Origin: an uncultured Pseudomonadota bacterium
GTDB lineage: Bacteria; Pseudomonadota; Alphaproteobacteria; RF32; CAG-239
Length of the DNA stretch: 64,000 bases
Direction of reading: 5' to 3'
Assembly (NCBI GenBank): GCA_902793695.1
Contig: CADBEI010000007.1
Location: 804-64,803, forward strand
Shown here: positions 1,720 through 60,444 of the stretch, in pieces
How the letters are laid out: each line of letters opens with the position of its first letter
Position numbering within the stretch: the stretch's first letter is position 1
Notes under the pieces: model-generated
Databases searched by the model: none
What the model was told of the DNA's origin: nothing
Seen by the model: only the letters and a program-made list of their open reading frames with translations
Program-made: the position numbers and the translations under genes

Positions 1720-1820
1720 TAGCCCCACATAGAATTTTTGAATATCCCCAGTGAAACGGCTGATAAAAGAAAAATATGCGATTATTCAAAAGCCATAGAA
1801 CTATATGTCCGCAGAGACCT

Positions 1821-3513: not shown

Positions 3514-3669
3514 TTTCTTTCTCCTTTTAGTCCGCTTAAAGTGGGACAAGTTGGGTTATAAATTCACTTTTTGAAATGCTTTTCTGGCATCTCGTTGTTT
3601 ATTGTATAACACGATGGATTGAAAAAATCAAGCGGTATTTTTTTAGAATATGTCAGATTTTGACATAGT

Positions 3670-4287: not shown

Positions 4288-4354
4288 AATTCCTTTATGT
4301 TGTTGAATCTATATGACTATTTATCAAAATTTTACTATTTCATAAAACAGTCCA

Positions 4355-6052
4355 GTGTTTGATTATATACGAATAAATAGAGCAAAATTGCTTCACCAGA
4401 ATTGGACTATTATGACGAAGAATCTGGAAGTGGTAAAGAAAGAATTATTGGCTCAAATTGAGAAAAGAGTTAATGATAAAATTATTGAACCTACTAACGC
4501 AGCAATACTTAATAAACTAATTAGCCGAGCAGAAGATGTAAATGAAGCAATCGCTATTGCCACGCTTGGAACTACTTACAAGCGAACAGGATTTCACTTT
4601 GATGCACGATTAGAAAAAACGGATGATAATACCATTAAATATTTTAAGAAAAATGATAAATTATCCTTTCAAACTTCACCTGATTCTATAACTCATAAAC
4701 TCATTATAGGTGATAATTATCAAGCACTTCAAAATCTTCTGATTGAATATAAAAATAAGGTAGATGTCATCTATATAGACCCTCCTTACGGCAAAGACAG
4801 TATGGGCGAATTTGCTGAAACCAACTATGATAATTCTCTTACAAGAGATAATTTACTATCTATGTTGTATCCTCGTTTGATATTAGCCAAACAACTTTTA
4901 TCTGATGACGGTGTTATCTTTTGTAGTATAGATGACAAGAATCAAGCCTATGTTAAGTGCCTGTTTGATGAGATTTTTGATGAATGTAAGTTTATTGGTG
5001 TCTTGCCACGGATAACAAAAAAATCTGGAAAAACAACCACTACTATTCAAAAAAATCACGATTATTTAATATGCTATTCAATGAGTGATACCCCTTTATT
5101 TATGAAATCAGAAAAAGACAATAGTAGTTATGATTTAGAAGATAAGCATTTGGAAAAAAGAGGACCATATAAACTGACCCAAACATTAGATTATAATTCT
5201 TTATCTTATTCTCCGTCTCTTGATTACGAAATATCTTTTCAAGGGAAAATTTTTGTTCCTGGTGGAGACAGAATTGCGTATGAAGAAAGAAAAAAAGGTA
5301 ATCATCAATCTTATGATTGGACTTGGAGATGGAGTAAGGAGGCCTTTATATGGGGAATCGAAAATGATTTCATTGTATTAAAAGGTGATAGGATTTATAC
5401 CAAAACATACTTAAAATGTAGAAAAAAAACAGGATGTTTAGAAATAGAATATACAGAAGGAAAACCTTATACTACGATGGAGTTTATTGAGGAAAATAAA
5501 TATTCCAATGATAATGGAAAAAAGAAACTAAAAGAAATTATTCCAAATGGTGATTCTTTGTTTAGCAACCCTAAACCGCCTATTCTTATAAACAAGTTAA
5601 TTTCAATGGTCTGCGATAAAGATAATGCAGTAATCCTTGACTTCTTTGCTGGTTCTGGCACGACAGGACAAGCAGTATTGGAACTAAATAAAGAAGATGG
5701 TGGTTCTCGTCAGTTTATTTTAGCCCAATTAAATGAAATTACGAAAACAACACCTAATGGTATTGTTTATGATGTCTTATCAAAGCGTCTTAAAAGAATA
5801 ATGACAGGTGAATGTTATGATGGAACAAAGGATTTTGAGTGGATTACAAAGAACCAGCCATTAGGTGATAATCTCGATGTATATGATATAGCATCAGTTT
5901 CTAATGCCTCAAATATCAAAGATAAGACACCTTTTGATGTTATAGATGAAACATTATACGGAAAAGAGAAGTTCAAAACAGTGAAAGAAAAAATCGAATG
6001 GGTTATAGATAACTTCGAACATACCCAAAAATATCTTGATGGAGAAGAATAA
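4355..6052 (+). CDS. mod: Type III restriction-modification system methyltransferase (Mod; N6-adenine/N4-cytosine class)
   Basis: Motif IV is DVIYIDPPYG. Motif I, FFAGSGTTGQAV, lies near the C-terminus, the beta-class order typical of Type III Mod. The start is uncertain: GTG at 4355 or ATG at 4412. Confidence 0.85.
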   Translation: MFDYIRINRAKLLHQNWTIMTKNLEVVKKELLAQIEKRVNDKIIEPTNAAILNKLISRAEDVNEAIAIATLGTTYKRTGFHFDARLEKTDDNTIKYFKKNDKLSFQTSPDSITHKLIIGDNYQALQNLLIEYKNKVDVIYIDPPYGKDSMGEFAETNYDNSLTRDNLLSMLYPRLILAKQLLSDDGVIFCSIDDKNQAYVKCLFDEIFDECKFIGVLPRITKKSGKTTTTIQKNHDYLICYSMSDTPLFMKSEKDNSSYDLEDKHLEKRGPYKLTQTLDYNSLSYSPSLDYEISFQGKIFVPGGDRIAYEERKKGNHQSYDWTWRWSKEAFIWGIENDFIVLKGDRIYTKTYLKCRKKTGCLEIEYTEGKPYTTMEFIEENKYSNDNGKKKLKEIIPNGDSLFSNPKPPILINKLISMVCDKDNAVILDFFAGSGTTGQAVLELNKEDGGSRQFILAQLNEITKTTPNGIVYDVLSKRLKRIMTGECYDGTKDFEWITKNQPLGDNLDVYDIASVSNASNIKDKTPFDVIDETLYGKEKFKTVKEKIEWVIDNFEHTQKYLDGEE

Positions 6053-8124
6053 TGCTTTCAGAAGCCATTGAATTACAGAAAGATGCCGTCAAAAAACTGG
6101 TAGAATGTACTTTATCAACAAGAGAAAATATTGTTTTCAAAGCACCAACGGGATGCGGTAAAACATATATGATGGCAGATATGATAGACCAGTTACTCGT
6201 TCATCCTGATAGACTAAAAGGATATGATACTTCTGTTAAAGACATCGTATTTCTTGTATCCTCGTTGTCTAAAAGTGATTTGGCTAAACAGAATTATGAA
6301 AAGTTTTGTGAATATAGTGATAAAAAATTCTTTTCTAATTTAAAACCATATTTAATAAATAGCGAGATAGCAGGAGAAGAGCGGTTATTTATACCTACTG
6401 ATTATAATGTATATTTCCTTCCGAGAGATTTATATAGGCACAATGCTCGTTTAATGCGTGGTGCTATGGAAAGTTTTTTACAAAATTTGACAGCACCAAC
6501 CACATTAGAAGGGAAAGGTAAGCGAATAATTTTAGTAAAAGACGAATGTCAGATTGCAACTAATAATTTGGATGGTCTTAACAGTTATTTTGATAAAATT
6601 ATCAATTTCTCTGCGACACCAAGATTGGGACGAGGACAACAACCCACCGTTGAAATAACAGAAGAAGATGCTGTTGCTGCTAAAATTATTAAATCTGTAA
6701 ATTGGCAGAGTGATGATGAAACACTTTCGGATGCTATTAATAAGTATATAGAAATAAAAGAAAAATATCAGAAGTTGTTTGGTTTTAAGCCGTGCTTAAT
6801 TATACAGATATCAAATCAAGACAGAGCCGATGAAGAAATAGAACAGATTCAAAGAGAAATTAACAATAGAACTGAATTACAGTGGATGCTAATTGTCGGT
6901 GAGGATAGAAATTGTGACACTAATAACATTATTAGAAAATATCCTGTTTCCTTATGGAAGGATAAGGTTAAGGAGAATATTTCCACCATAGATATTATAA
7001 TTTTTAAAATGGTAATAACAGAGGGTTGGGATATTCCACGAGCCTGTATGTTATACCAAATAAGAGATGTTAATAGTTCTCAATTAAACGAACAAGTTAT
7101 AGGACGGATAAGAAGAAATCCTAAATTATTAGATTATGAAACTCTAACCCCAGAGCAACAAGAATTAGCATTACAATCTTGGGTTTGGGGAGTTCATAAT
7201 AACGAAGCGGAAACAAGACAATGGAAATCTGTGAAATTACAAGAGAAAGAATTTGCTTCTGATATAAAGATTAAGACAACTAAACTTAAAAGTCTTGATG
7301 AAAATAATAAAAACTTTGATATAAACTCTTTTATAAAGAAACAGGATGCCATTATTGCTCCAAACAATATTTTTGATTTAGGAAGAAAAATCAGAAAATT
7401 AGATAGTAAGCTACAAGAAAAAATATATGATTATGCCACTGACTATCAAAAATGGTGGGAGATAGCCGAACACACAAATGCTCTTAAAAAAGAATATGAC
7501 ACCTATATTTGTAATTACGAAGAAAGTATGGAAATAACACAAGAAAATGGTAAAGATAAAGAAGTTTCTTTCCCTATTACTTCACAATATTTAGATACCT
7601 CACATATATTAGAAATTGAAGATAGTGTGTGGATGATAAAAGGAAATACTAATGACAGTGATTTTTCTTTTGATAGTGCTGCGGAAAGGAGGTGGGCGAG
7701 AGAACTGCAAAGGATAGCAATGAGAGGATTGGTCGCAGAACCATCAAAAAATGGCTTATTTAGTGGAGATAAAGAAATCTACTTATGGGGCAAAAATTAC
7801 ATACCAAATTCAGATATAAAATATGAATATTATCTTAATGGCATACATTCTTCATATCCTGATTTCATAATGAAAGACAGAAAAGGAAATATCCATATTT
7901 TTGAGGTTAAAAGTGTTAATATAAGTAAAGAACACATTATTGACACAGATGAATACAATAAAAAAATTGAGGAACTTAAAAAGTCATATAAACAAGCATC
8001 AAAATTAACCCAGCATATTTTTTACCTACCATTATTGAAAGATAATGATTGGAGGATTACCAGATACCAAGGTGGCGTGGAAGATATGATAAACGAAAAA
8101 ATGTTTGAAGAGAGTCTTAAATAA
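6052..8124 (+). CDS. res: Type III restriction enzyme Res subunit (SF2 helicase + C-terminal PD-(D/E)xK nuclease)
   Basis: Walker A is APTGCGKT, motif II is VKDECQ and motif VI is QVIGRIRRN. The C-terminal YPDF...IHIFEVKS is a nuclease motif. The start overlaps the mod stop (TAATG). Confidence 0.8.
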   Translation: MLSEAIELQKDAVKKLVECTLSTRENIVFKAPTGCGKTYMMADMIDQLLVHPDRLKGYDTSVKDIVFLVSSLSKSDLAKQNYEKFCEYSDKKFFSNLKPYLINSEIAGEERLFIPTDYNVYFLPRDLYRHNARLMRGAMESFLQNLTAPTTLEGKGKRIILVKDECQIATNNLDGLNSYFDKIINFSATPRLGRGQQPTVEITEEDAVAAKIIKSVNWQSDDETLSDAINKYIEIKEKYQKLFGFKPCLIIQISNQDRADEEIEQIQREINNRTELQWMLIVGEDRNCDTNNIIRKYPVSLWKDKVKENISTIDIIIFKMVITEGWDIPRACMLYQIRDVNSSQLNEQVIGRIRRNPKLLDYETLTPEQQELALQSWVWGVHNNEAETRQWKSVKLQEKEFASDIKIKTTKLKSLDENNKNFDINSFIKKQDAIIAPNNIFDLGRKIRKLDSKLQEKIYDYATDYQKWWEIAEHTNALKKEYDTYICNYEESMEITQENGKDKEVSFPITSQYLDTSHILEIEDSVWMIKGNTNDSDFSFDSAAERRWARELQRIAMRGLVAEPSKNGLFSGDKEIYLWGKNYIPNSDIKYEYYLNGIHSSYPDFIMKDRKGNIHIFEVKSVNISKEHIIDTDEYNKKIEELKKSYKQASKLTQHIFYLPLLKDNDWRITRYQGGVEDMINEKMFEESLK

Positions 8125-8266
8125 TCTCTGTCAGATTCTGACATAGTTCAAAAAATTATACTTGATTTGTGAATTATTATGTGGTAATCCATCTTATGAA
8201 TGGTGGTTATTTATAATCCAACTTGTTTGCCACCTTTATAAACAAATAACTAAAAGGAGACATAAT

Positions 8267-9055
8267 ATGAATCTAATTAAAACATTTTCCGTAATTTTGG
8301 CTTTGATAATGCTCGCTAACCCAGCGTGGTGTGGCGATTCGCAGGCTTTTGATAACTATGCGGTATCAGAAGCAACCCATCATCAAAATGTTGATATTCT
8401 CAAAGATTACATTATCAAGTTTCACGCCCGTGGCGGAGCATTTATCGTGCTTGATACCGAAACAAAAGACCTTATTGATAAGCAGTTTGTCGGCAGCGTT
8501 TGGGAAGGTTTCCCAATCTGGTCGCACAATGCTTTGCGTTTGTTTAACTATGCTATCGGACTTCATACAGGTGCCATAAAAGAAAACGAAAAAATTATCT
8601 TAAATGTCAGAGATTCCAAACTGTTTGACCGTATCGCCAAAGCCGACCGCGAGGCTTATATGAAACCATATATCGTCAAAGATACTGCGATGCCGATGAC
8701 ATTATTGCTCGCTTACATTAAGTTATTCAAAAACGCTGATGGCTACTTGACCGAATCGCAAATCGCTAAACTTAAATCCGCCTTATCGGAAAATGTTAAA
8801 ACAGGCAAGGCAACACGAGCCAACGTTGAGGGAGCGAGTGTGGCAGGATTAGGCTCTACAACGGATAAAGATAAGGACGGTAAAGAAGTTTATACCGTTT
8901 TTGTGGGCGAGTTTGAGGCAAACGGCAAGAATTATGCCATTATAACGCTTTTGGACGAGCCAGAGGCGTTACAATCCACTTATGGATTCAACACAACAGG
9001 TTGGAACACGGCACCAATGACAGCCGAAATAATCAAGAATATCGGCACTAAATAA
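8267..9055 (+). CDS. Secreted penicillin-binding-protein transpeptidase-like protein with degenerate catalytic motifs
   Basis: The signal peptide is MNLIKTFSVILALIMLANPAWCG, and an AGGAG RBS precedes ATG 8267. The C-terminus TYGFNTTGWNTAPMTAEIIKNI parallels the FtsI of this window (TYGFTTAGWNAVPITRNIIAAV). The SxxK position reads HNALR and the KTG position reads GLGSTT. Confidence 0.5.
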   Translation: MNLIKTFSVILALIMLANPAWCGDSQAFDNYAVSEATHHQNVDILKDYIIKFHARGGAFIVLDTETKDLIDKQFVGSVWEGFPIWSHNALRLFNYAIGLHTGAIKENEKIILNVRDSKLFDRIAKADREAYMKPYIVKDTAMPMTLLLAYIKLFKNADGYLTESQIAKLKSALSENVKTGKATRANVEGASVAGLGSTTDKDKDGKEVYTVFVGEFEANGKNYAIITLLDEPEALQSTYGFNTTGWNTAPMTAEIIKNIGTK

Positions 9056-9069
9056 TCGGGAGAAGGACT

Positions 9070-17751: not shown

Positions 17752-18438
17752 TTATTTTTTTTCATCAGGGTCGCGTAAAACATAACCGCGCCCCCAAACG
17801 GTTTCAATATAGTTTTTACCGCCGGAAGCCTTTTCGAGTTTTTTACGTAATTTGCAAATAAATACGTCAATAATCTTGAGTTCCGGCTCATCAATACCGC
17901 CATACAAATGATTAAGGAACTGGTCTTTGTTCAAAGTAGCCCCTTTACGCAAAGAAAGGAGTTCCATAATGCCGTATTCTTTACCGGTCAGATGCAAAGT
18001 TTTACCCTTGACGGTAACGGTTTGTGTATCCAAATCGATTTCGACGTCACCGGTGCGGATAATGGAATTGGAGTGACCTTTGGAACGGCGAACCACCGCC
18101 TGAATACGCGCCAAAAGTTCGGCTTTATCAAACGGTTTGGTCAAATAGTCATCGGCGCCGTAGCCTAAACCCTTAACTTTTTTATCCGGCTCGGACAATC
18201 CGGAAAGAATGAGAACCGGTGTATTAACTTTGGCGTTGCGTAAATTTTTCAAGACTTCATAACCGTTCATATCCGGCAACATCAAATCCAGAATTATAAT
18301 ATCGTAATCATAAAGTTTGGCAATATCCAACCCGTCTTCGCCCAAATCGGTAGCATCAACCACCATTCCTTCTTTTTTAAGCATCATTTCAATAGTTTGC
18401 GATACCGCATAATCATCTTCAACCAAAAGAACTCTCAT
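17752..18438 (-). CDS. ctrA: Cell-cycle response regulator CtrA (OmpR family)
   Basis: MRVLLVEDD...DLMLPDM...RRSKGH...[14 protein letters not shown]...[28 protein letters not shown]...[14 protein letters not shown] closely matches CtrA throughout. Confidence 0.9.
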
Positions 18439-18641: not shown

Positions 18642-18716
18642 GGTCCCATCGTCTAGTGGTTAGGACGCGGCCCTCTCAAGGCTGCAACACGAGTTCAAAT
18701 CTCGTTGGGATCACCA
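18642..18716 (+). tRNA. tRNA-Glu (anticodon CTC)
   Basis: GGTCCCATCGTCTAGTGGTTAGGACGCGGCCCTCTCAAGGCTGCAACACGAGTTCAAATCTCGTTGGGATCACCA. The anticodon loop is CTCTCAA and CCA is encoded. Confidence 0.9.
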
Positions 18717-18720
18717 ATAA

Positions 18721-18794
18721 AAAAAACTCCCCTGCAACGGGGAGTTTTTTTATTGGTCCTCATTTCCGTACGAGATTTGAACGAGGTACGCGGC
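18721..18794. repeat. Direct repeat copy 1 (terminator hairpin + inverted pseudo-copy of tRNA-Glu 3' end)
   Basis: About 85 percent identical by eye to 20213..20283. It contains acgagatttgaac, the exact reverse complement of the tRNA-Glu T-arm 18693..18705. Confidence 0.7.
18727..18751 (+). terminator. Rho-independent terminator after tRNA-Glu
   Basis: CTCCCCtgcaacGGGGAG followed by TTTTTTT, with an A-tract upstream, so it may act in both directions. Confidence 0.7.
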
Positions 18795-19068: not shown

Positions 19069-20175
19069 ATGGCAAAAGGTGAAAACACAAATCCGTCCTC
19101 GGAAACTCTATTAGAGATTAATAGAGGGGTTAATTTTGTAGGTAATTGGCTTTCTGAACGATATGCTGCCGGAAAAATAACGAAACAAGAATATAGTCAA
19201 GCAATGGAAAAAATCGCTAATGTTAAAATTTTTCCGACCGGTCGTGGCACAGACAGATTGATTGACGCATATAAAAAAGGCGAGTTAAAATTAAGTGAAG
19301 CGTACACAAAAAAAGGATTTACCGTTGAAGATCTTGAAAAGGGTTTATTACGACAAGCTTCTTATGCAAATGAACTTCGCGGGCTATCTACTTTTTGGTC
19401 CGATAATCCCGTTATCTTGATAGATATTGAAAAAATAAAGGCCGAAAACGGTAAACGATCAGACTTATCCAGTGTGGTAGTACACGAATTAACGCATTGC
19501 TTGGGATTGAAAGACACCAGCGAAAAAGAAATAAAAAATATTTTGTATGGTAAATATCAACAAACACTCCCTCTTAACGAGTCAGTTAAAGAGAGTACAA
19601 CCTATTACTCCGTTCAAGTTATTCCTGATACGGGCACAAACAGGTACGTTCACGGAAATAAAAAAATAGAAAGATCCGGACAATATCCTAACAACTTACA
19701 ACTTAATAAAAACGTATTATATGATCCTTATGAAGATAAAGAAAATGAAGTATACGCCAGAATAATGCAAATGCGCTATGACATGAATTTGGACCCTCAA
19801 AAAAATTACACTCCCGAAGATATTAAAATGATGCGCCAATATTTGCTTGAAAAGCAAATTGAGGCAAATCTGGACGGTGCAGATCAAGATATTAATAACA
19901 GAATTTTTGAGCGGTACTCTGATGAGCAAATCAGCCATTTTTTAAACGATACCGCCCAAATACAACCAAACAAGGATAATGATACCAATTATTTAGCGAA
20001 TATAAAGCAAATAATGAAAAATGACAGTGAACAATGCTTAAACACTATGAACATTTTAAGCCATCAAACGCTTTTGGCTTCAATACCGGAATCAAAGAAA
20101 AGAAGTGCCTCATATGAAAGTGATAAGAATTTAAGTTCAGCTATCTTACAATACAAACAAAATGAGTACGGTTGA
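19069..20175 (+). CDS. Hypothetical protein with HExxH zinc-metallopeptidase-like motif
   Basis: VVVHELTHCLG is present. There is no signal peptide. The gene is AT-rich and flanked by the 71-74 nt direct repeats. Confidence 0.45.
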   Translation: MAKGENTNPSSETLLEINRGVNFVGNWLSERYAAGKITKQEYSQAMEKIANVKIFPTGRGTDRLIDAYKKGELKLSEAYTKKGFTVEDLEKGLLRQASYANELRGLSTFWSDNPVILIDIEKIKAENGKRSDLSSVVVHELTHCLGLKDTSEKEIKNILYGKYQQTLPLNESVKESTTYYSVQVIPDTGTNRYVHGNKKIERSGQYPNNLQLNKNVLYDPYEDKENEVYARIMQMRYDMNLDPQKNYTPEDIKMMRQYLLEKQIEANLDGADQDINNRIFERYSDEQISHFLNDTAQIQPNKDNDTNYLANIKQIMKNDSEQCLNTMNILSHQTLLASIPESKKRSASYESDKNLSSAILQYKQNEYG

Positions 20176-20212: not shown

Positions 20213-20283
20213 AAAAAACTCCTCTTTGGGGGAGTTTTTTTGTTGGTCCCCATTTCCGCACGAGATTTGAACAAGTATGCGGC
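20213..20283. repeat. Direct repeat copy 2 (terminator hairpin + inverted pseudo-copy of tRNA-Glu 3' end)
   Basis: aaaaaactcctctttgggggagtttttttgttggtccccatttccgcacgagatttgaacaagtatgcggc. See copy 1. Confidence 0.7.
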
Positions 20284-23350: not shown

Positions 23351-23687
23351 GCGGTGTATTCTCCCCTGAAAAACAAGAAAAAAAGCCGGAGAACGTGGCT
23401 AATAGAAAAAGGCTTCCCGCTGTGTTTCCACTTTGCAACAAGAAAAATCACGAATAGCGTGTATAAATACGAAGAAAGTCCTTTGACGCGGTGTATTCTC
23501 CCCGGAAAAACAAGAAAAAAAGCCGGAGAACATGGCTAATAGAAAAAGGTTTCTTCCCGCGGTGTTTCCACTTTGCAACAAGAAAAATCACGAATAGCGT
23601 GTATAAATACGAAGAAAGTCCTTTGACGCGGTGTACAAAAGAAGTACATAAGTCAAAGGACTTTCAAGTAGTTATCAGCTAGACGTG
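23351..23687. repeat. Long-hairpin element locus A: two tandem 137/140-nt units plus one complete about 99-nt hairpin element (23589..23687)
   Basis: Units 23351..23487 and 23488..23627 are near-identical. The terminal hairpin is AAAGTCCTTTGAC-gcgGTGTACaaaagaaGTACAtaa-GTCAAAGGACTTT with outer arms cacgaatagc.../...gctagacgtg. It ends about 10 nt from the rplA stop. Confidence 0.8.
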
Positions 23688-23697
23688 ATTTCCAATA

Positions 23698-24381
23698 CTA
23701 AAGATTGGAAGAATCAACCTTAACACCTACCCCCATAGTCGAACTGATTGAAATTTTCTTCAAATAAGTTCCTTTCAGGCTGGCAGGTTTAGCCTTCAAA
23801 ATCGTTTCAATGAACAATTTGGCGTTGTCATAGATTTGATCACTGCTGAAGGAAGCCTTAGCCACACCGGCGTGAACAATACCGTTCTTTTCTACACGAT
23901 ATTGAACTTCACCTGCTTTGGCATTTTTAACAGCTGTGGCAACATCGGTGGTAACCGTACCGAGTTTCGGGTTCGGCATCAAGCCTTTCGGACCCAATAC
24001 ACGAGCAACACGGCCGGCCATACCCATCATATCCGGAGTTGCGATACATCTGTCAAAGTCAACCTTTCCGGCCAAAATCGAATCGACCAGGTTTTCGGCA
24101 CCGATAATATCAGCACCCGCTGCCTTAGCTTCATCAGCCTTTTCGCCTTGCGCAAACACAGCCACGCGAACGGTTTTACCGTTGCCGTGCGGCAACTGGC
24201 AAACGCCGCGAATCATTTGATCGGCGTGTTTCGGATCAACACCCAAGTTAATTGCCAAATCGATGGTCTCATCGAATTTTGCAGTTGCATTTTCTTTTAC
24301 GATATTGATAGCGTCTTTCAAGCTGTAAGCCTGATTCTTATCAATATTTTTATATGCATTTACTAATCTCTTTCCGCTCAT
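23698..24381 (-). CDS. rplA: 50S ribosomal protein L1
   Basis: The full-length L1 pattern is present (..[17 protein letters not shown].., GLMPNPK.GTVT). Confidence 0.95.
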
Positions 24382-35404: not shown

Positions 35405-35446
35405 ATATGCCGCGGTTTTAAAGACACTATCAAATAACATATAAAA

Positions 35447-35723
35447 CACCGTATAATGAGTCAGATACGACGTTACCCTTTGCGCGTAGTGTACAACAAA
35501 AGGTACATAAGCAAAACAGCAGTGCAGAACGTATAAAAATCCGTAGAATGAGGTAAATACGAAGGGGGATTTTGACGACGTGTACAAAAGAGGTACATAC
35601 CCCCCTCGAAGAACAGTTAAAACACCGTAGAATGAGTCAGATACGAAGTAAGCGGGTCGGCGCCGTGTACAATAAGAGGTACATAAGCCAACCCGCTTAC
35701 AAGTAGATGACCATTATACAGTG
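35447..35723. repeat. Long-hairpin element locus B: three tandem members, the last (35623..35723) complete
   Basis: Each member has (c)accgtaKaatgagKYaRatacgaMg, then a unique stem, GTGTACaa..aGGTACATA and the complementary stem. The last ends caagtagatgaccattatacagtg, 4 nt from the PPIase stop. Confidence 0.8.
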
Positions 35724-35726
35724 TTT

Positions 35727-36332
35727 TTAGATGTCGGAGATGACGGAAAGGGCAATAATCTCATCCGGATTTTCAACCATTCCATTGGGTTCGCCACCTT
35801 TTTTAAGCATATCGACATATTCCATACCGGAGGTTACTTCGCCCCAGACGGTATATTGACCATCAAGCCACGGACAATCGGCGTAACAAATAAAGAATTG
35901 GCTGTCGGCCGAATCCGGCATCATGGCACGCGCCATCGAAACCGTACCGCGTTTGTGCGGAGTGCGATTAAATTCGGCTTTGAGCTTTTTGCCGCTACCG
36001 CCGGTGCCATCGCCGCGCGGACAACCGGCTTGCGCCATAAAACCTTCAATCACTCGATGAAATTTCAGGCCGTTATAAAAACCCTGCCGCACCAATTCCT
36101 TAATTCGCGCCACATGGTTCGGAGCAATATCCGGCAACATTTCGATAATCACGTCACCGTATTTTGTTTGCAATAACAGAGCATTGTCGGCATCTTTAAC
36201 CCTGTATGAATGCTTGATTTTTTTAGCTCTGGTTTCGCTCATTGCCAATTTTTTAGTTTCTTTATTTTCCAAATTTTTGGTAGAAGGTTTGGAAAGATTT
36301 TTTGTTTTGTTTTTATCCAATAAATCAGTCAT
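35727..36332 (-). CDS. Cyclophilin-type peptidyl-prolyl cis-trans isomerase with Lys-rich N-terminal extension
   Basis: FHRVIEGFMAQAGCPRGDGTGGSG and the SMARA..PDSADSQFFI motif are present. Confidence 0.9.
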   Translation of the reverse strand: MTDLLDKNKTKNLSKPSTKNLENKETKKLAMSETRAKKIKHSYRVKDADNALLLQTKYGDVIIEMLPDIAPNHVARIKELVRQGFYNGLKFHRVIEGFMAQAGCPRGDGTGGSGKKLKAEFNRTPHKRGTVSMARAMMPDSADSQFFICYADCPWLDGQYTVWGEVTSGMEYVDMLKKGGEPNGMVENPDEIIALSVISDI

Positions 36333-41836: not shown

Positions 41837-43081
41837 ATGAAAATATTTTACTTTATCTTTGCATTGTTTATTTGCTCACCGGTTTCCGCACAATACAAAG
41901 AATACAATCATTTGTACGAATATGATTTGGATGAAGAAATTCCGCCACTGTATCGCTTGGAGCGCGAATATAAAAAATCTTATTCAAATTACCGCTGGAA
42001 TTACGACTTCCGCTGGAATATGTCCAGTCTTTTCAATTCGGAATTCAAACAAAATATTACCTCTTTCGGCACCAACGAAAAACGTTTATCCAATGCCGAT
42101 GAAGATGCCATTTTGCGTCAGCTCAAAAAAATACCTAAGCCTTTTTATCAATATATCGGCCCGCTGATTCATACCATGCGCGGTCTTTCCGGCAAAGTGC
42201 TCGATTTGCCGGGGATTAAGGAGACTAAACATCAGTTTCCGACTCAGATTGCTTCGCACTTCAAAGATGTGCCGTATATCGAACTGACTTCACCACATTT
42301 GTATATGTATCTCAATCCGATTTTGTGGGGTGAAGATATGGCTTCGATTGAAACACCGCAAATAGCCAAACAACCGCGCAAAAAACGTCCGCGCATCCGT
42401 ATCAATCCGGAATTTATACAGCAAATAAAGACTAAAGTGCGCGCTGTTGATTATGCCGGCAGAGGCCGCAGAAAAACCGCCGAATTGGATTTAAGACATT
42501 TCAACCCCGACCGCAACACACCGCTGTCTAAAGCCGATGTACGCGCTTTTGCCCGCACTCTTGACGGACTGGATAATTTTCGTAAACAAGGTAATCACGA
42601 AAGAACCTTGATTATGGTTGAAGGCTTGATGAACTATTGGGATGTCAAAAACGGAATACCAGAAGAAAGCCTGTTGTTCCGCCAAATAGTAAACCCCTGC
42701 CAAAACTTTGTGCGCAAAATCCAATGGAGTAATTTGCAAAATGAATTTCAAACCGTTATCGGTCAACAGGGATTCGGCTTAAAAGATTGGGCTTATACCT
42801 GCGATAAGGTTGTTAAAGCTTGGCGTGTACACAATGCTCCATCCGGTATGATATGGGCGGCACGCCAACAAAAAAAAGGAAAGATTTATCCGTTGTTTGA
42901 ACCGTTTTTGGTTACCGAGCAGGAAAAAACGCAAATGCATTATATTTTGGATTCTCTGGCGCGGATGTACACCACAAAAGCAGAAGATATAGATGCAATA
43001 AAACCTTATAATACCAACTTGAAATATCAGTTTATAAAAATGGGACGACAACTTTCGGGAACTCCGATTATTCGCCAATAA
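41837..43081 (+). CDS. Hypothetical secreted protein (414 aa)
   Basis: The signal peptide is MKIFYFIFALFICSPVSAQ. No recognised motif. The gene is AT-rich. Confidence 0.5.
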   Translation: MKIFYFIFALFICSPVSAQYKEYNHLYEYDLDEEIPPLYRLEREYKKSYSNYRWNYDFRWNMSSLFNSEFKQNITSFGTNEKRLSNADEDAILRQLKKIPKPFYQYIGPLIHTMRGLSGKVLDLPGIKETKHQFPTQIASHFKDVPYIELTSPHLYMYLNPILWGEDMASIETPQIAKQPRKKRPRIRINPEFIQQIKTKVRAVDYAGRGRRKTAELDLRHFNPDRNTPLSKADVRAFARTLDGLDNFRKQGNHERTLIMVEGLMNYWDVKNGIPEESLLFRQIVNPCQNFVRKIQWSNLQNEFQTVIGQQGFGLKDWAYTCDKVVKAWRVHNAPSGMIWAARQQKKGKIYPLFEPFLVTEQEKTQMHYILDSLARMYTTKAEDIDAIKPYNTNLKYQFIKMGRQLSGTPIIRQ

Positions 43082-43106
43082 AACAGAAAAAATCGGCTAA
43101 AAATTT

Positions 43107-43388
43107 AGAGAATGAGCCAGATACGAAGAAGGATTTTTTCGACGTGTACAATAAATTATACGGCAACTAAAAACTCGGAGAATTAGGTTAATACGAAGGG
43201 GATTTTTTTCGACGTGTACAATAAATTATACGGCAACTAAAAACTCGGGGATTTTTTTCGACGTGTACAATAAATTATACGGCAACTAAAAACTCGGAGA
43301 ATTAGGTTAATACGAAGGGGATTTTTTTCGACGTGTACACAAACAGTACACGAGAAAAAAATCCCCAAGTAGTAACCAATTATACGAG
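43107..43388. repeat. Long-hairpin element locus C: four tandem modules, the last (43293..43388) a complete hairpin
   Basis: cgacgtgtacaataaattatacggcaactaaaaactcgg occurs three times with 70-nt and 49-nt periods. The final element is GGGGATTTTTTTCGACGTGTACacaaacaGTACACGAGAAAAAAATCCCC with outer arms ctcggagaattaggttaatac/gtagtaaccaattatacgag. It ends 3 nt from the fabG stop. Confidence 0.85.
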
Positions 43389-43391
43389 TTT

Positions 43392-44129
43392 TTAAATCAT
43401 GGCCATCCCGCCGTTAACGTGAATAGTCTGTCCCGTAATGTATTGTGCTTCATCGGATGCAAGAAATGCAACGGCATTTGCAATATCTTGAGCTTCGCCG
43501 AGTTTGCCTTCCGGAATTTTTGCCAAGAGAGCGGCTTTCACATCGTCCGGAAGAACATCGGTCATCGGGGTACGGATAAAGCCCGGAGCGATGGAGTTAA
43601 CGGTCACGCCACGCGAACCGACTTCTTGAGCCAGACATTTATTCATGGCAATCATACCGGCTTTGGAGGCCGAATAGTTAGCTTGACCGGCATTACCCAT
43701 TACACCGACTACGGAGGCCATACCGATTATGCGACCATAACGACGTTTCATCATACCGCGAACCACGGTGCGAGCAAGTTTAAAACCGGCGGTAAGATTT
43801 ACATCCAATACAAATTGCCATTTTTCGTCACTCATACGGATGAACAGGTCATCTCTCGTAACACCGGCATTATTTACCAAGATGTCGATTTTGCCGAATT
43901 TTTCTTCAACCGCTTCCACCAAAGATTTTATGGCTTCAGTATCGCCCAAATTAGCCACAAAATATTCAACGTGATCACCGAGTTCTGTCTTAAGTGCTTT
44001 TAAACCTTCTTCATTCATATCGGTTAAGGCCAGATATGCGCCCTGTTCATACAATGTATGGGCGATTTTGCGACCGATACCGCCGGCGGCACCGGTAATC
44101 AAAGCAACTTTTTCATCTAATCTAAACAT
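43392..44129 (-). CDS. fabG: 3-oxoacyl-[acyl-carrier-protein] reductase
   Basis: SDR motifs TGAAGGIG, NNAG and YSASKAG are present, next to fabD. Confidence 0.9.
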   Translation of the reverse strand: MFRLDEKVALITGAAGGIGRKIAHTLYEQGAYLALTDMNEEGLKALKTELGDHVEYFVANLGDTEAIKSLVEAVEEKFGKIDILVNNAGVTRDDLFIRMSDEKWQFVLDVNLTAGFKLARTVVRGMMKRRYGRIIGMASVVGVMGNAGQANYSASKAGMIAMNKCLAQEVGSRGVTVNSIAPGFIRTPMTDVLPDDVKAALLAKIPEGKLGEAQDIANAVAFLASDEAQYITGQTIHVNGGMAMI

Positions 44130-45275: not shown

Positions 45276-48017
45276 ATGAAGTCGGGTACACACGAAAATA
45301 AAAAATCTGAATCATGGTTCAAACGGATATTTTGCAATCTGACGGGAACGGCTCTGATTATTCTGCCGTTGGCGATTTTGGCGGCGATTTTTGATTACAG
45401 TGCCGATGATCCCTCGCTCAACAAAGTTGTATCCGACGAGCGACCGCTGCAAAATTTTTTGGGTTTGTTCGGAGCATACAGCGCCGATTTTGTATTAAGC
45501 ACATTCGGTTTGGCACTGATAGTGTTTCTTATTGTGCCGATTTTCTGGGGTTTGAGTTTGCTTTTTCAGCGTGAGATTATCGAATGGAAAATGCGCTTAT
45601 TTGCGTGGTTTGTCGGAATTATCAGTTTTGCCGGTTTTATTGATTTAACCTGTCGCAACTATCTGGGACGTTTCAATCTGCCTTATAATTTAACCGGCGA
45701 ATGGTCGCGCCATTTAAGCACTTCACTGAATAATTACGCCAATTATCTGACATTATTGAAGCCCCCGTATAACAAGATAATATTGTTGATTTTACTGTTT
45801 TTCATCAGCTTAATGGCTTTCAATTTTGCAGCCGGAATAACTTTTAAATTTTGGTTGCGACTATTTTCAAAGATTATGGCATTCGGCGGCAAAATTATGC
45901 ACTTGGCGATTAAACTTTTCAAAAAGGTCGCCCACGTTCGCAGTTTTAACGAATTTAAAGAGATTAATCCGAGTTATATGCGCGCCAAAATGCAGAATAA
46001 ACTGGCAACACTTAATCAGCGGCGCGAGCCTGCTTTTGAGCGGATTGAGCCGACTATGAACAGCCAAACGTTGAACACTTCCACCGCCTTGTCAACATTC
46101 TCCGAAAAACCGGCTCAAAACATAACTCCAAACGGTCCGAAAATCGTAATGCCGCAAGCGGTATCTGTCCAACCGCCGGCGCAGGCCGTAACCGCTCAAT
46201 CAGCGACACCTCTCGCACCGGCGGAAACACCTAAAACTTCTTCGGTAAATCCGACTTTTGATTTTATTAACGAGCCGCAGGTTATGCAGAAAAAACCGGT
46301 CGCTAAAATTTCGCCGGAAGACATTTATCATACCGAAGGTGCCAAACAAACAGCTCCGAAAGCCGCGGCTCGCCAATCCGTCGCCGTACAGGAAGAACTC
46401 TTAAATGTTCCGACAACCGCGCCGGCGCCGACCAAGCAACAGCCGCAAGAACAGCGTACGGCAACCGCTTCTGCGCATGTCATCGTACCGCAAACGGAAA
46501 CAGCCTCTCGTCCGCAATCCGAAGCGCACGAATACACCTTGCCGGATATTAACTTGCTCTCTGTTCCTAAAGATACGGGGGCGATTACGGTTGATGAAAA
46601 TGCTCTCAAAGAGCGCGCCGCCAAGTTGGAACAGGTGTTAAACGATTTCAACATTCACGGTCAGATTGTGGCGGTTCGTCCGGGGCCGGTCGTAACTTTG
46701 TATGAGCTGGAACCGAAAGCAGGTACCCGTACCGCGCGTGTTATCGGACTTTCCGACGATATTGCCCGATCCATGGCCGTATCTTCGGTGCGTATGGCGG
46801 TCGTTGCCGGCCACAGTACCATCGGTATTGAATTGCCTAATGAAAAACGACAAACCGTATGGATACGCGAATTGTTTGAAGATAATGAATTTGTAACCAG
46901 CAAAAACATTTTGAACGTTGCTCTGGGTAAAGATATCGGCGGGCAACACGTTTACGCCGATTTATCCAAAATGCCGCACTTATTGGTTGCCGGTACTACC
47001 GGTTCCGGTAAATCCGTCGGTGTGAACACTATGATTTTATCGCTTTTATATCGGATGACACCGGAACAATGCCGTTTTATTATGATTGACCCGAAACAAC
47101 TTGAGTTTTCCATGTATAACGGCATTCCGCATTTACTGACTCCGGTGATTACCGATCCGGCCAAAGCGGTTGTCGGGCTCAAATGGGCAGTACAGGAAAT
47201 GGAAAATCGCTATCGTCAGATGGCTCTGCTGAATGTCCGCAATATTGCCGGCTATAACAAGAAAATCGAAGAAATGCAAAAAACCGGCAAAGGGTTGAAA
47301 AAGACCATTCAAACCGGTTTTGATAAGGAAACCGGACAGCCGATTTACGAGGAACAAATCATCGACACTTCGCCGATGCCGTATATCGTGATTGTGGTGG
47401 ATGAAATGGCCGATTTAATGCTGGTTGCCGGCAAAGAAGTAGAAGCTGCGATTCAGCGCTTGGCACAAATGGCGCGTGCTGCCGGTATTCACTTGATTAT
47501 GTCGACACAACGCCCGTCGGTTGACGTTATTACCGGTGTAATTAAATCTAACTTCCCGAGCCGTATCAGTTTCCACGTAACGACTAAAATCGACAGCGGC
47601 ACCATTTTGGGCGAAAAAGGTGCCGAACAGCTACTCGGCATGGGCGATATGTTGTTTATGTCATCTGGTTCTCGTCCGGTACGTGTTCACGGCTGTTTTG
47701 TTGCCGATGAAGAAGTCGAGCGCGTGGTTGAATTCATTAAAGCACAGGGTGAGCCGCAATATGTGGCTGAAGTTACCGCCGGCGAGTTGGAAAGTAAGGA
47801 TTCCGGTCCGGTGTTTGATAAAGGCGATTTCGGTGGTGGAAATGATGAAGAAGATTTATATCGGCAGGCGGTTGAAATTGTCCGCACCGATAAAAAAGCT
47901 TCCACCAGCTATGTTCAGCGCAAATTGTCAGTAAACAAGACCACGTCGGCCGCCGCGAAGTTTTGGGCGTGGATTAATATTCCGATTTTCACAAAAACAC
48001 TTGACTTTTGTCCATGA
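45276..48017 (+). CDS. ftsK: DNA translocase FtsK (gamma domain apparently truncated)
   Basis: The protein has N-terminal TM helices, a Pro/Ala/Gln linker, and a motor with GTTGSGKS and VVDEMADLM. The C-terminus ends [13 protein letters not shown] plus 28 unrelated residues, without the expected RIGYNRAARxI helix. Confidence 0.9.
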
Positions 48018-48029
48018 AAAGGGCAATAT
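48001..48029 (+). promoter_or_regulatory. Sigma70-like promoter candidate for the downstream orphan gene
   Basis: TTGACT, a 17-nt spacer and CAATAT lie inside the last codons of ftsK. Confidence 0.3.
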
Positions 48030-48084
48030 GAAACTATAACTAACGATTCTTTATATGAGATAACTTAAACAAGGAGAAGTTAAT

Positions 48085-49017
48085 ATGAGTGAAATTTCCG
48101 TTTTTGATTTGGCCCTAGTTATGTCTGAAATTAATATTGACGGCAGAGAAGAAGCCCAAAAAAATATTCAAAATATGTTCGCTGAAAACAAAAATTACAA
48201 ATATGATGATAAAAAAACATTAAAAGAAAACATTATAGATGCTTTCCCTCAATATAATCTTAAAGATTATGCCGACTATTGTTTGTCTTCATATAGAACC
48301 TTTACAAACCTTGACATGGATTGGAACAATAAAGAAGATGTGAAAACTTATAAATCCAGTTGTCTGGCTCATCTGGATATGTACAAATTACCTGAAAAAA
48401 TAAATCCTTCGGATAAAGATAATCCATATCAGAAAAAAATTGAGATTACTTTGCCTGAATTGCTTTCCGTTATGACTGGAAAAGTTATCGAAAATGTTTT
48501 TTATCGTGGTGCTCATGATAAAGTTACTGATATGTTGTATATAACAGATATTAAATTAAAAGGACAAACATTGCGTGAAAAAATTACGGAATTATTTCCT
48601 GAATTTCCTTTGGAAAAGTTTGCACAAGAATTTGAACGTTCCTTCGAAGCAGCAAAGTTGATGGGACTGGACGAACGCAAAGGTTTTACTGTTGATGCTG
48701 TTAATGTATTGGCTAAGGGGTACAATTTTCCGAAGACGTTTGTTGTTACAGAAAAACAATCCGAGCAAGAGAAATTTGAACAACAAAAAGCAGATGGCCT
48801 TGCGAGAATTGAAAAGAATAAAAAAGTACTTGCAGAAACAAAAGCTTCTTCTAAAGAAGCTACACCTGAAGCAAAAGCTTCTTCTAAAGAAGCTACACCT
48901 GAAGCAAAAGTTTCTTCTCAAGACAACAAAGCGTCAGAGCATACAAACGCTACATTCCATGTAATCACAGGTCGTAATCATCCTTGGGACTGGAGGGATG
49001 AAAAACATTTCAGATGA
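48085..49017 (+). CDS. Hypothetical protein (310 aa) with C-terminal 11-aa tandem repeat
   Basis: aaggag RBS. KASSKEATPEA x2 is encoded by a perfect 33-nt tandem duplication at 48841..48906. The gene is AT-rich. Confidence 0.5.
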   Translation: MSEISVFDLALVMSEINIDGREEAQKNIQNMFAENKNYKYDDKKTLKENIIDAFPQYNLKDYADYCLSSYRTFTNLDMDWNNKEDVKTYKSSCLAHLDMYKLPEKINPSDKDNPYQKKIEITLPELLSVMTGKVIENVFYRGAHDKVTDMLYITDIKLKGQTLREKITELFPEFPLEKFAQEFERSFEAAKLMGLDERKGFTVDAVNVLAKGYNFPKTFVVTEKQSEQEKFEQQKADGLARIEKNKKVLAETKASSKEATPEAKASSKEATPEAKVSSQDNKASEHTNATFHVITGRNHPWDWRDEKHFR

Positions 49018-49060
49018 TTAATCCGAAACAAGCTAACCATATTGCACCATTTACACAAAA

Positions 49061-49088
49061 ACCGCCGGTTCACGCCGGCGGTTATTTG
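49061..49088 (+). terminator. Terminator hairpin
   Basis: ACCGCCGGttcacgCCGGCGGT followed by TATTT. Confidence 0.5.
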
Positions 49089-49111
49089 CTTTGCAGAAAA
49101 CTCTAAAAAAG

Positions 49112-49206
49112 CTCATAGAATTAGGCTAATAGAAAAAGGTTTTTTCCCGCGGTGTACAAAGTAGTACATAAGGGAAAAAACCTTTGATAGTAGCCAATTA
49201 TATGAG
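49112..49206. repeat. Long-hairpin element locus D: single complete 95-nt copy
   Basis: ctcatagaattaggctaatag-AAAAAGGTTTTTTCCC-gcgGTGTACaaagtaGTACAtaa-GGGAAAAAACCTTTg-atagtagccaattatatgag. It ends 6 nt from the rpsD stop. Confidence 0.85.
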
Positions 49207-49212
49207 TTTTTA

Positions 49213-49827
49213 CTATCTGGAGTAGTATTCGATAACCAAATTCGGCTCCATAACTGCAGCGTACGGAACATCTTCAAACTTCGGTACAAAAGTATATGTA
49301 GCCTTCAGTTTTTTGGTATCAACTTCCAAATAAGTCGGGCATTCGCGAGTTTGCGATTCGATAGCATTCAAAACAATGTTCAAATTTTTAGACTTTTCGC
49401 GAACTTCGATAACATCACCGGCCTTAACCATATAAGACGGAATGTTTACCTTTTTGCCGTTAACGGTAACGTGACCGTGGTTAACAAATTGACGAGCCGC
49501 AAATACGGTCGGCACAAATTTTGCTTTATAAACCAAGTTATCCAAACGGGATTCGAGCAAACCGATTAAGTTTTCGGCGGCATCGCCCGAACGACGAATA
49601 GCTTCGGCATAATATTTACCGAATTGTTTTTCGGAAATATTACCATAGTAAACTTTCATCTTTTGCTTGGCAATCAATTGTTGACCATAGTCGGTAACTT
49701 TTGCTTTTCTCTGACCGTGTTGACCAGGGCGATAGCTTCTTTTGTTAAACGGGCTGTTGTTATCACCCCAAAGATTGTCGCCGTAACTACGGCTGAGTTT
49801 TTTCTTTGCAGAAACGATACTTTTCAT
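49213..49827 (-). CDS. rpsD: 30S ribosomal protein S4
   Basis: The sequence matches full-length S4 (..YGNISEKQF..., S4 domain [14 protein letters not shown]). Confidence 0.95.
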
Positions 49828-59779: not shown

Positions 59780-60105
59780 GATGACGTGTCATCCCATAAA
59801 TCTGCCTGCCGCCAAACACGCTTCCCGACCTTTAAGAATTTCAGCCTGTTTTTACAACTCAATGCCGACAGCACCGACAGTATTAACCCTCTTAACCGTT
59901 CATTAAAAAAGATTAACAAACCGTTAAACAAGAGTCATATATCATGCCTTTTTTTAAAAATCCAGTAAAAAACGTCTTTTATCCGTATTTTTATGCCACA
60001 AATCAAGATAAGTCATTGTTTTATATTGATTTTATTTTAGAAATAAATACTGTTTTTTATGTTTTTGACGCATAATTTTCTATTCGTGCACCATAAAATT
60101 CTATC

Positions 60106-60133
60106 TTGAAATTTTTAAAAGAATCTATATATT
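60106..60133 (+). promoter_or_regulatory. Sigma70-like promoter candidate for ssrA
   Basis: TTGAAA, a 16-nt spacer and TATATT lie just upstream of the tmRNA precursor. Confidence 0.35.
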
Positions 60134-60140
60134 ATAAAGC

Positions 60141-60444
60141 GTCAGGCAACTGACTGTGACACCAGAGGCCTTATGAAATAGGTACGTCGGACCCGAGGGC
60201 AGTACTCGGCACCTCCACCATTTATGGGGGTGAAACAGGATTGACGGTGTATAGTAAAGATATGTGTTGTGTCCGGTGAGATACCACCGTTATCGGTTCA
60301 AATTAAATAAACGCAAATGATAATTTTGCACCTGTTGCCGTTGCTGCGTAATGCGGTAAATGCAACAAATTTCAATTCTTTGAGCTTTGGTTAGCTTAAA
60401 GTGGGGAGTGAGCCGCCCAGCAACAGAACGGCTCGTTTGATTTT
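60141..60444 (+). ncRNA. ssrA: Two-piece (circularly permuted) tmRNA precursor; boundaries approximate
   Basis: The acceptor piece ends ...CCGAGggcagtaCTCGGCACCTCCACCA at 60220. The coding piece starts GGGGGTGAAACAGGATTGACGG at 60226 and gives a G3:U70 pair with the 3' strand. The tag ORF gca aat gat aat ttt gca cct gtt gcc gtt gct gcg taa encodes ANDNFAPVAVAA (60313..60351). A terminal hairpin plus T-tract lies at 60410..60444. Confidence 0.85.

Follow-up and report, generated by a model that had tools for sequence, protein, structure and literature searches.

The described systems that come closest to the element reported here are palindromic repeats of the REP/BIME, REPIN, SPRITE, ERIC/IRU, Correia (NEMIS), RPE and CIR types and the attC sites. 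The element itself is a hairpin of about 110 nt that occurs in four full copies in a 64,000-nt stretch of DNA from an uncultured alphaproteobacterium (contig CADBEI010000007.1 of assembly GCA_902793695.1, positions 804 to 64,803; this whole stretch is called the window), where each copy stands at the stop codon of a gene on the opposite strand. Like REP and BIME sequences of E. coli and other Proteobacteria, it is an intergenic imperfect palindrome at gene 3' ends, often between convergent genes, and it builds mosaic arrays of units and linkers, the recurring composites of which recall BIME mosaics. Liang, Rudd and Deutscher reportedly found in 2015 that translation termination in E. coli is affected when a REP lies no more than ~15 nt from the stop codon. 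However, a REP has 20-40 nt, whereas the element has three times that length and consists of a single uninterrupted hairpin; GTAG lies 5' of the palindrome in REP, but in the element it stands (within CAAGTAG) 3' of the inner stem, with CTAC 5' in the other sense; and REPs are spread through extragenic space, while the element is fused to the stop codons of a fixed housekeeping set. BIME units alternate in orientation, unlike the units of the element's arrays, which all point one way. A REPIN consists of two self-folding inverted REPs, whereas the isolated arms of the element fold no better than shuffled sequence (-6.1 vs. -5.2 kcal/mol for the 5' arm, -4.1 vs. -4.3 kcal/mol for the 3' arm). 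REPINs are also distributed randomly in extragenic space (PMC3116915), in contrast to an element whose paired bases begin at -3 to +5 nt of the stop in 78 of 92 junctions. Identity with REP or REPIN was rejected on these four grounds: length, the side of GTAG, arms that do not fold by themselves, and non-random distribution.

SPRITE is likewise a repeat family whose members resemble intrinsic terminators (PMC10969869), but it belongs to another phylum, is unrelated in sequence and has no reported fusion to core-gene stops, hypervariable central cassette or stacks of half-copies; it was set apart by its description. ERIC/IRU and Correia (NEMIS) share with the element a long hairpin of 100-150 nt with TA termini; they are co-transcribed with neighbouring genes and affect mRNA fate via RNase III or RNase E (PMC10969869, PMC2229807). 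They have, however, defined terminal inverted repeats, target-site duplications and scattered sites that are often upstream of genes, whereas in the element only certain boxes and the apex are conserved and the position is fixed at stops. The RPEs of the alphaproteobacterial genus Rickettsia are palindromic too, have ~100-150 nt and may occur in frame within coding sequence, as the element does in some pilin leaders, but they are mostly intragenic and encode a conserved peptide, while ~90% of the copies here are extragenic at stops; RPE too was set apart by description. The CcrM-associated intergenic repeats of Caulobacter (CIR) are structured, intergenic, ~110 bp long and conserved across Alphaproteobacteria, but consist of two arms and a linker exposing a conserved GANTC (PMC2229807). 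This identity was rejected since the element is a single end-to-end hairpin and GANTC is found in just 15 of 99 copies, all of one box subtype. REPs of E. coli are reported to serve as dual terminators and stabilisers in 3' untranslated regions (UTRs) (preprint 10.64898/2026.03.23.713779), and related behaviour is described for SPRITE, ERIC and Correia elements (PMC10969869). The REP/SPRITE/ERIC-like kind of repeat is already known; the anchoring to stop codons of core genes, the hypervariable cassette and the one-sided stacks of half-copies are new variations.

The element turned out to represent a real, well-defined structured repeat family of one clade of uncultured host-associated Alphaproteobacteria among the matches listed in a genome scan. 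We take this clade to be the one that GTDB names RF32. The pattern scan of a species-representative genome collection gave at least 111 loci, at least 103 of them from metagenome-assembled genomes (MAGs) of uncultured Alphaproteobacteria from rumen, ruminant gut and human gut; in the window the apex pattern GTGTACA-N3-12-GTACA is found six times vs. 0.01 expected. Eight other matches (cyanobacterial, Bacteroidetes, actinobacterial and others) lack a covariance-model match and are considered chance, and the same family pattern gave 0 copies in a viral contig collection. A covariance model was built from the four window copies, and the scan with it recovered at least 106 full copies, scoring 65-116 bits, in 94 sources, i.e., the window and 43 MAG assemblies. 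All family-wide counts rest on the window and on the alphaproteobacterial MAGs among the matches listed; sequences compared individually are denoted by handles such as L016. The reverse strand of each copy scores about half under the model, so the element has a definable orientation, here called +. Two further matches of the model in the window were discarded, one (18695-18782) as the ordinary terminator after tRNA-Glu and the other (194-297) as an unrelated hairpin. The first-pass annotation, which was made from the letters of the window, recognised no named family in these hairpins. None matches Rfam at gathering thresholds, a permissive Rfam search gives only generic hairpin matches to miRNA-precursor families (best 27 bits vs. 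a threshold of 94), and no description was found in the literature on REP/REPIN, MITE, CIR and RF32. The alphaproteobacterial origin of the window agrees with its two-piece alpha tmRNA and ~42% G+C.

The copies covary strongly. In 102 distinct sequences, aligned by fitting to the model, which favours structure, canonical pairs occupy 94.4% of the pair cells, compared with 76.0% after shuffling of the 3' partners and 35-46% after shifting them by 1-3 columns, margins that are still very large. Double-sided changes occur in 30 of the 39 pairs, and compensatory cells number 698 vs. 174 expected. Near-invariant positions are limited to the apex GTGTACA...GTACA, ATAC-GAAG, CAAGTAG and a few loop purines. 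Conserved ends and apex with compensated stems, as proposed from the four copies at first, are thereby borne out across the clade. Outside two fixed positions, G-U pairs (53) show no excess over A-C (71) and there is no strand asymmetry; therefore the pairing is Watson-Crick on both strands. Such pairing fits either folding in both directions of transcription or upkeep at the DNA level, and by itself it does not establish selection on one RNA.

The first-pass annotation placed the four copies at 23589..23687, 35623..35723, 43293..43388 and 49112..49206. All are present there in one orientation; the positions hold, but the true hairpin is longer by ~5 nt at either end, where it reaches into an A-run and a T-run, and measures 107-110 nt. 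With these ~5 extra nt per side, the minimum free energy (MFE) of the four RNAs is -48.3 to -51.4 kcal/mol, while dinucleotide shuffles reach only -15 to -19 (z from -9.8 to -13.1) and none of 200 is as stable. The complementary strand folds almost equally well. Read on the + strand from the outside inwards, the hairpin consists of an A-run with a variable outer stem of 8-11 bp, the T-run being on the far side; a 3x3 purine-rich internal loop; a bulged, semi-conserved 'box' stem in which GAATKAGGYTAATAC is paired with GTAGYWACCMATT; an internal loop GAA/AA; a variable middle stem of 13-14 bp; a small internal loop; and the apical stem GTGTAC/GTACAY closing an A-rich loop of 6-9 nt. The middle-stem sequences reported earlier are correct, with a single C-A mismatch in the copy at 35.6 kb, and the outer stem varies with compensation just as the middle stem does.

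The most striking finding is the position of the element relative to stop codons. Among 92 non-redundant junctions, defined by a convergent open reading frame (ORF) of at least 60 codons ending on the element's 3' side (in the orientation of the model), the outermost pair of the stem begins -3 to +5 nt past the stop codon in 78, most often at -1/-2. In a typical junction (...TAA|AAACTCG...) the first bases of the outer stem are supplied by the stop codon itself, and in tuf of several species the last codons make up the stem. The stops used are TAA in 73 cases, TAG in 18 and TGA in one, as against 71, 15 and 14% for long ORFs in the same DNA. For the window copies, a gap of 3-10 nt after the stop had been given; the measured distance to the first paired base is -2 to +5 nt, and the stop sometimes falls within the stem. 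The identification of their hosts as rplA, a peptidyl-prolyl isomerase (PPIase) gene, fabG and rpsD agrees with NCBIfam matches.

The fixed orientation at 3' ends of highly expressed genes, first noticed in the window, is the same in 92 of 92 junctions. The hosts comprise 35 gene families, mostly those that bacterial cells express most strongly: rpoA (11 junctions), fabG (10), tuf (9), a FadL-type outer-membrane protein, PPIase and rpsA (5 each), rplA and rpsD (4 each), as well as nusG, dnaK, rpoC, rho, TolC, an OmpA-family lipoprotein, rplL, rplI, secY, rpsU and others, several of the rarer ones being identified by eye from translations. The same ~20 housekeeping genes bear the element across 43 species-level assemblies.

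Where orthologous genes end without the element, an ordinary short terminator (A-run, GC hairpin, T-run) is found 10-60 nt past the stop. This is the case for TolC (L032, L029), pgk (L078), rpsU (L012) and the OmpA-lipoprotein (L029), although the inverted repeat at rplA of L005 is less clear-cut; ordinary terminators also serve other genes of the window. Because the element-free orthologous ends carry ordinary terminators, the element appears to fill the functional slot of a terminator, and this occupancy is the main basis on which we propose a termination function. As in an intrinsic terminator, T4-6 directly follows the hairpin on both strands and the hairpin lies at the 3' end of the gene; the trailer past it contains 40-50% T on the gene strand vs. 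29% in the background. A short form is seen at tuf in L076 (~4640-4780, minus strand), where an A-run, a 13-bp stem of the middle type, the family apex (ATGTAC-loop-GTACAC on the gene strand) and a T-run stand 30 nt past the tuf stop without box or outer stems, followed by remnants of a distal arm. Units reduced to the inner hairpin also build arrays of their own in L100, L004, L013 and L079.

We consider it fairly probable, judging from this anatomy, that the element is a lineage-specific, repeat-borne bidirectional intrinsic terminator and mRNA 3'-end module, renewed by replacement of the hairpin or its cassette. A 3'-UTR terminator or stabiliser had been among the roles first suggested and is the best-supported function, given the ordinary terminators at element-free orthologous ends. 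On the gene strand, the stop codon (TAA as a rule) would be followed in the transcript at once by a hairpin of ~45 bp and then by U4-6 and a U-rich trailer. Hairpin and U-tract would halt RNA polymerase, leaving a 3' end protected from exonucleases. Since the near-palindrome is flanked by an A-run and a T-run, it could also halt transcription arriving from the opposite side. The invariant apex GTGTAC-loop-GTACAY and the purine-rich loops (ATAC-GAAG, CAAG-TAG) probably nucleate folding and/or bind a putative clade-specific protein or RNase.

Several points weigh against this reading. We infer termination and stabilisation from anatomy and context only, and the trans-acting factor is likewise postulated. 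A simple terminator scan does not call the elements; the outer stem beside the T-run is A/T-rich, the T-run has just 4-6 bases, and the hairpin is far longer than termination requires. The near-invariance of apex and loops goes beyond what termination alone explains. With G-U at 53 vs. A-C at 71, the pairing could be kept at the DNA level. The renewal by break and repair proposed below is deduced from junction positions only, and recurring linkers such as AACCGGCAC suggest that some 'half-copies' spread as parts of composite units. Finally, copies in the leaders of pilin genes, discussed further on, are a non-terminator context and the best single argument for mobility.

The full copies are accompanied by stacks of half-copies. 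Eight 3'-truncated copies, which were missed in the earlier account, lie just 5' of three of the four full window copies (Table 1). In the rplA array (23380..23565) they alternate two classes in a duplicated unit of 140 nt (repeat families D3/D4). Those of the PPIase locus (35443..35598) keep the apical mini-hairpin and lack the 3' arm. At fabG, compared with L038, L073 and L075, the last two truncated copies are a recent tandem duplication absent from L038; the window thus has two more units than this close relative, the extras being tandem duplications between direct repeats. Contigs that encode the FabG of the window break inside the repeat array, an assembly effect that carries no information on transcription. 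Across the family, 81 of 100 non-redundant gene-distal segments of 400 nt hold at least one further copy. All 155 such copies are on the same strand as the full copy and 146 start at the 5' end of the model; 39 end at model positions 50-59 (inside GTGTAC), 84 at positions 65-79 (just past GTACAYAAG), and only four reach position 100 or beyond. The usual locus is therefore a gene, its stop codon, one complete hairpin and then 1-5 distal arms cut at or beside the apex, with linkers of 5-30 nt; periodic arrays of 98 nt and 145 nt are seen in L100 and L028.

The class of a half-copy may differ from that of the adjoining full copy. At rpsD of L016 the class that is full-length in the window, and complete also in L019, is present only as a 5' arm ending ...GGTGTA; after a linker of 13 nt comes a complete copy that belongs to another class and has unchanged outermost bases beside rpsD. 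Linker and leader segments have no universal motif, only subfamily-specific ones (GGCAC, 14% vs. 2% background; GCAAC and others). Because linker motifs recur within subfamilies, e.g., AACCGGCAC at three loci of one MAG, some composites of half-copy and full copy have probably propagated as units. As a separate observation, in the predicted fold of the PPIase-locus array (35425-35735, minus strand) the full copy engages with its proximal arm not its own distal arm but that of the farthest half-copy of the same class. Half-copies could, as this model has it, provide alternative pairing partners in read-through transcripts.

Resident copies are better conserved than the genes they adjoin. Over the aligned 50-nt bins, the fabG copy of the window does not differ from those of three other species representatives (100% identity to L038, L073 and L075), whereas fabG itself is ~82-90% identical and the left-hand (upstream) gene 56-75%. 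By contrast, L031, with flanks closer to the window (~88-90%), bears a different class at fabG. Middle stems fall into 50 classes among 103 copies (at 85% identity), of which 15 occur at more than one host gene family, and the box and outer stems vary continuously. In one MAG, the full copies at rpsA and at a parvulin gene differ by one base. The first-pass annotation regarded the middle stems as copy-specific: within the window they do differ and are self-complementary, but across the clade the classes recur at other genes. It further took the pattern as selection on structure rather than copy-paste. The compensation is real, but classes recur across loci and genomes, and the central segment is swappable as a unit. 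The variable middle stem and apex form a contiguous central segment between conserved boxes of ~30 nt; being one contiguous swappable segment, they would keep their complementarity when exchanged by gene conversion and can thus yield copy-specific self-complementary stems with no pairwise compensation.

These patterns may be explained as follows. Strong purifying selection would hold a resident copy unchanged rather than drifting, and occasionally the whole hairpin or its central cassette (middle stem and apex) would be replaced by another class from the genome pool. Since breakpoints cluster at the apex, we propose that an extruded DNA hairpin would be cut there, that the gene-proximal end would invade another copy via the conserved outer stem and box, that the hairpin and leader of the donor would be copied, and that the product would be rejoined to the old distal arm at the apex, leaving a half-copy. 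Half-copies would then be amplified by slippage between direct repeats. Only distal arms would survive owing to the proposed selection for an intact hairpin beside the stop codon. SbcCD cuts hairpin loops in E. coli. The apex break with repair from an ectopic copy is a tentative scheme, which we rate as conceivable rather than probable; an alternative route is slippage of replication stalled at the hairpin, followed by conversion. It is decidedly doubtful that a dedicated structure-specific nuclease or recombinase (putative) cuts the apex and homes a new hairpin or cassette to the stop codons of highly expressed genes. The features read by such an enzyme on the extruded hairpin would be the invariant apex and the bulged boxes, and an old distal arm would stay in place after every round. 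If true, it would constitute a homing/gene-conversion mechanism for non-coding 3'-end modules without a known counterpart, and under this reading the hypervariable centre might serve to stop dispersed copies recombining with each other.

A further possibility, which we regard as unlikely, is that the element is a non-autonomous mobile element (MITE- or REP-like) moved as single-stranded DNA by a putative hairpin-recognising enzyme and homing to TA(A/G) stop codons or to resident copies, with terminator activity tolerated or co-opted. The 15 middle-stem classes spanning more than one host gene, the near-identical rpsA and parvulin copies and a class distribution incongruent with flanking-gene similarity would all be expected of it, as would TA at both ends of many copies; the conserved asymmetric bulges and apex resemble protein recognition features. 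The most telling case is that of in-frame copies in the leaders of type IV pilin-like genes, as in Rickettsia RPEs (PMC10969869). They occur in one human-gut MAG (CAKQPS01, three loci) and a related MAG, lack the A- and T-runs, are co-oriented with the gene and lie downstream of a (CT)6-7 tract, which could be a phase-variation switch. The pilin 5' module of ~330 nt is conserved and places the hairpin just before the G|RSMIEML processing motif, while the C-terminal domains differ between loci; normal members of the pilin family, including the window gene 17112-17903, have short leaders. Nevertheless, in 919 kb of element-bearing DNA a phmmer search with E. coli RayT (E<=10) found no homologue among 4562 ORFs, and neither multi-copy ORFs within MAGs nor recurrent transposase or integrase neighbours nor a nearby recombinase were seen there. 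REPs and REPINs typically go with a single-copy RAYT (a Y1/HUH transposase), which the repeats usually flank. The same ~20 housekeeping genes are occupied in 43 assemblies, unlike the scattered REPINs (PMC3116915), resident copies are under strong purifying selection, and no viral copies were found. A MITE has terminal inverted repeats and a target-site duplication, and its filled and empty sites differ by a clean insertion. The present element is an inverted repeat over its whole length, and its end TAs are themselves palindromic, so that a target-site duplication could not be told apart from the palindrome. At empty orthologous sites, which are too diverged and have another terminator, there is no clean insertion footprint.

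It is improbable, in our estimate, that the element acts as DNA where heavily transcribed genes end, e.g., as a gyrase, topoisomerase or nucleoid-protein site or as a cruciform roadblock that would manage supercoiling or transcription-replication conflicts, as proposed for BIME-2/REP of E. coli. The hosts are the most heavily transcribed genes of the cell, the pairing obeys strict Watson-Crick rules on either strand and does not favour G-U, the invariant apex GTGTAC-N-GTACAC is a dyad of the kind dimeric proteins bind, and breakpoints clustering at the apex are expected if a hairpin or cruciform forms and is cut in vivo. However, fusion to the stop codon and replacement of ordinary terminators are simpler to understand at the RNA level, and protein binding is hypothetical here. 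What part the REPs of E. coli play in organising the chromosome is itself a matter of dispute, and a 2026 preprint (10.64898/2026.03.23.713779) finds terminator and stabiliser roles instead.

We see very little chance that the element works as a functional RNA in its + orientation, antisense to the host end, either as a small RNA or as an antisense-blocking terminator against convergent transcription. On the + strand, the unpaired positions are purine-rich (GAG/ATA, GAA/AA, A-rich loops) and the apex is closed by G-T in 57 copies but by A-C in none. Under the covariance model this strand receives about double the score of the other, and it is in this sense that the copies in pilin leaders share the direction of their gene. 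The asymmetry of the model, however, results from its construction. A promoter scan confined to the fabG-locus array revealed no promoter-like site, and the anchoring to host stop codons would be left without explanation. Finally, attC-like recombination sites with arrays exchanged as cassettes by an integron-type integrase, barely credible and already largely refuted, offer a superficial parallel (an imperfect palindrome, defined by structure and 57-141 nt long, that directly adjoins the stop codon of the ORF upstream and keeps one orientation, conserved bulges and boxes around a variable self-complementary centre, arrays on one strand), but the element lacks the R''/R' core (RYYYAAC...GTTRRRY) on either strand of the consensus as well as cassettes and an integrase, its hosts are dispersed core housekeeping genes rather than promoterless cassettes, its array units are half-sites of 60-100 nt without intervening ORFs, and the sole integrase-like ORF of the window (13648-14910, a weak match) lies beside a tRNA gene, 9 kb from the nearest element.

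The probable terminator family described above provides a natural experiment on 3' ends, as the same essential genes carry interchangeable hairpin cassettes or ordinary terminators depending on the species, with resident copies better conserved than the adjoining coding sequence. The one-sided, apex-truncated stacks may be read as a record of breakage and replacement of long palindromes in vivo. They open the question of whether covariation in a DNA palindrome comes from selection or from templated repair, as well as the questions of how repeat-borne terminators spread and whether stop-fused hairpins couple translation and transcription termination. In practice, RF32-like Alphaproteobacteria of rumen and gut can be scanned with the covariance model to mark where operons end and where assemblies break, and the family offers predicted compact, bidirectional terminator parts.

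Table 1. Coordinates of the elements, their host genes and other features (window positions unless a handle is given; CM, covariance model; MFE in kcal/mol).
Feature	Position	Strand	Remarks
Full element	23584..23693	+	Abuts stop of minus-strand rplA; CM 109.5 bits; MFE -48.3, z -9.8; nhmmer
Full element	35619..35728	+	Abuts stop of cyclophilin-type PPIase; CM 110.1 bits; MFE -51.4, z -11.4
Full element	43288..43394	+	fabG stop TAA = first bases of outer stem; CM 115.5 bits; MFE -50.3, z -13.1
Full element (definition copy, ATAGAAAA box subtype)	49107..49212	+	1 nt past rpsD stop; CM 105.4 bits; MFE -48.8, z -12.4
Three truncated copies	23380-23425, 23444-23495, 23517-23565	+	Cut at GTGT(A); nhmmer model positions 2-51/52
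Two truncated copies	35443-35520, 35535-35598	+	nhmmer model positions 2-78 and 2-66
Three truncated copies	43099-43155, 43169-43226, 43239-43275	+	Cut at GTGTACA; linker ATAAATTATACGGCAACT; D1 repeats
Host gene rplA	23698..24381	-	NCBIfam TIGR01169, 1.2e-97
Host gene peptidyl-prolyl isomerase	35727..36332	-	NCBIfam PpiA/PpiB, ~1e-22, under curated cut-off
Host gene fabG	43392..44129	-	NCBIfam TIGR01830, 3.8e-95
Host gene rpsD	49213..49827	-	NCBIfam NF003717, 3.9e-76
Two-piece (permuted) alphaproteobacterial tmRNA gene	60102-60438		217 bits
Type IV pilin-like 5' module	L005 339-1271		
Type IV pilin-like 5' module	L022 3392-4252	-	
Type IV pilin-like 5' module	L029 1-370	-	
Type IV pilin-like 5' module	L061 5270-5379	-	

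Of the neighbours on the other side of the window copies, three had been described as AT-rich, but only the one at 48-49 kb clearly is, and the neighbour of the fabG copy (41837-43081) is conserved in relatives. The AT-rich ORF 48085-49017 (within 47968-49058) has no family match and contains 33-nt tandem repeats at 48835-48933; it is absent from the site in L016, and a different sequence is present there in L066. The idea that the elements mark boundaries of gene gain is not supported: this orphan sits between the stop codon of ftsK and ftsK's own terminator (49060-49083), not at the element. In ftsK of the window (ORF 45276-48017), 58 nt between two ATTG repeats are missing at 47925-47935 compared with L016. 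The loss frameshifts the gamma (KOPS-binding winged-helix) domain, with unrelated residues after ...SYVQRKL, and may be a real truncation or an assembly error.

At the other end of the window, positions 1-15500 form a low-GC island (30-36%) beside tRNA-Pro (15432-15508, minus strand). It encodes a type III restriction-modification pair (methylase 4355-6052, Res 6052-8124), a DUF2779 protein, an ADP-ribosylglycohydrolase and a Fic-domain protein, and it also holds the integrase-like ORF mentioned above. A 47-nt direct repeat (18739-18785 and 20229-20275, 91% identical), each copy of which follows a similar GGGGAG-type terminator hairpin, brackets the ORF 19069-20175 downstream of tRNA-Glu (18642-18716) and may be the boundary of a small inserted segment.

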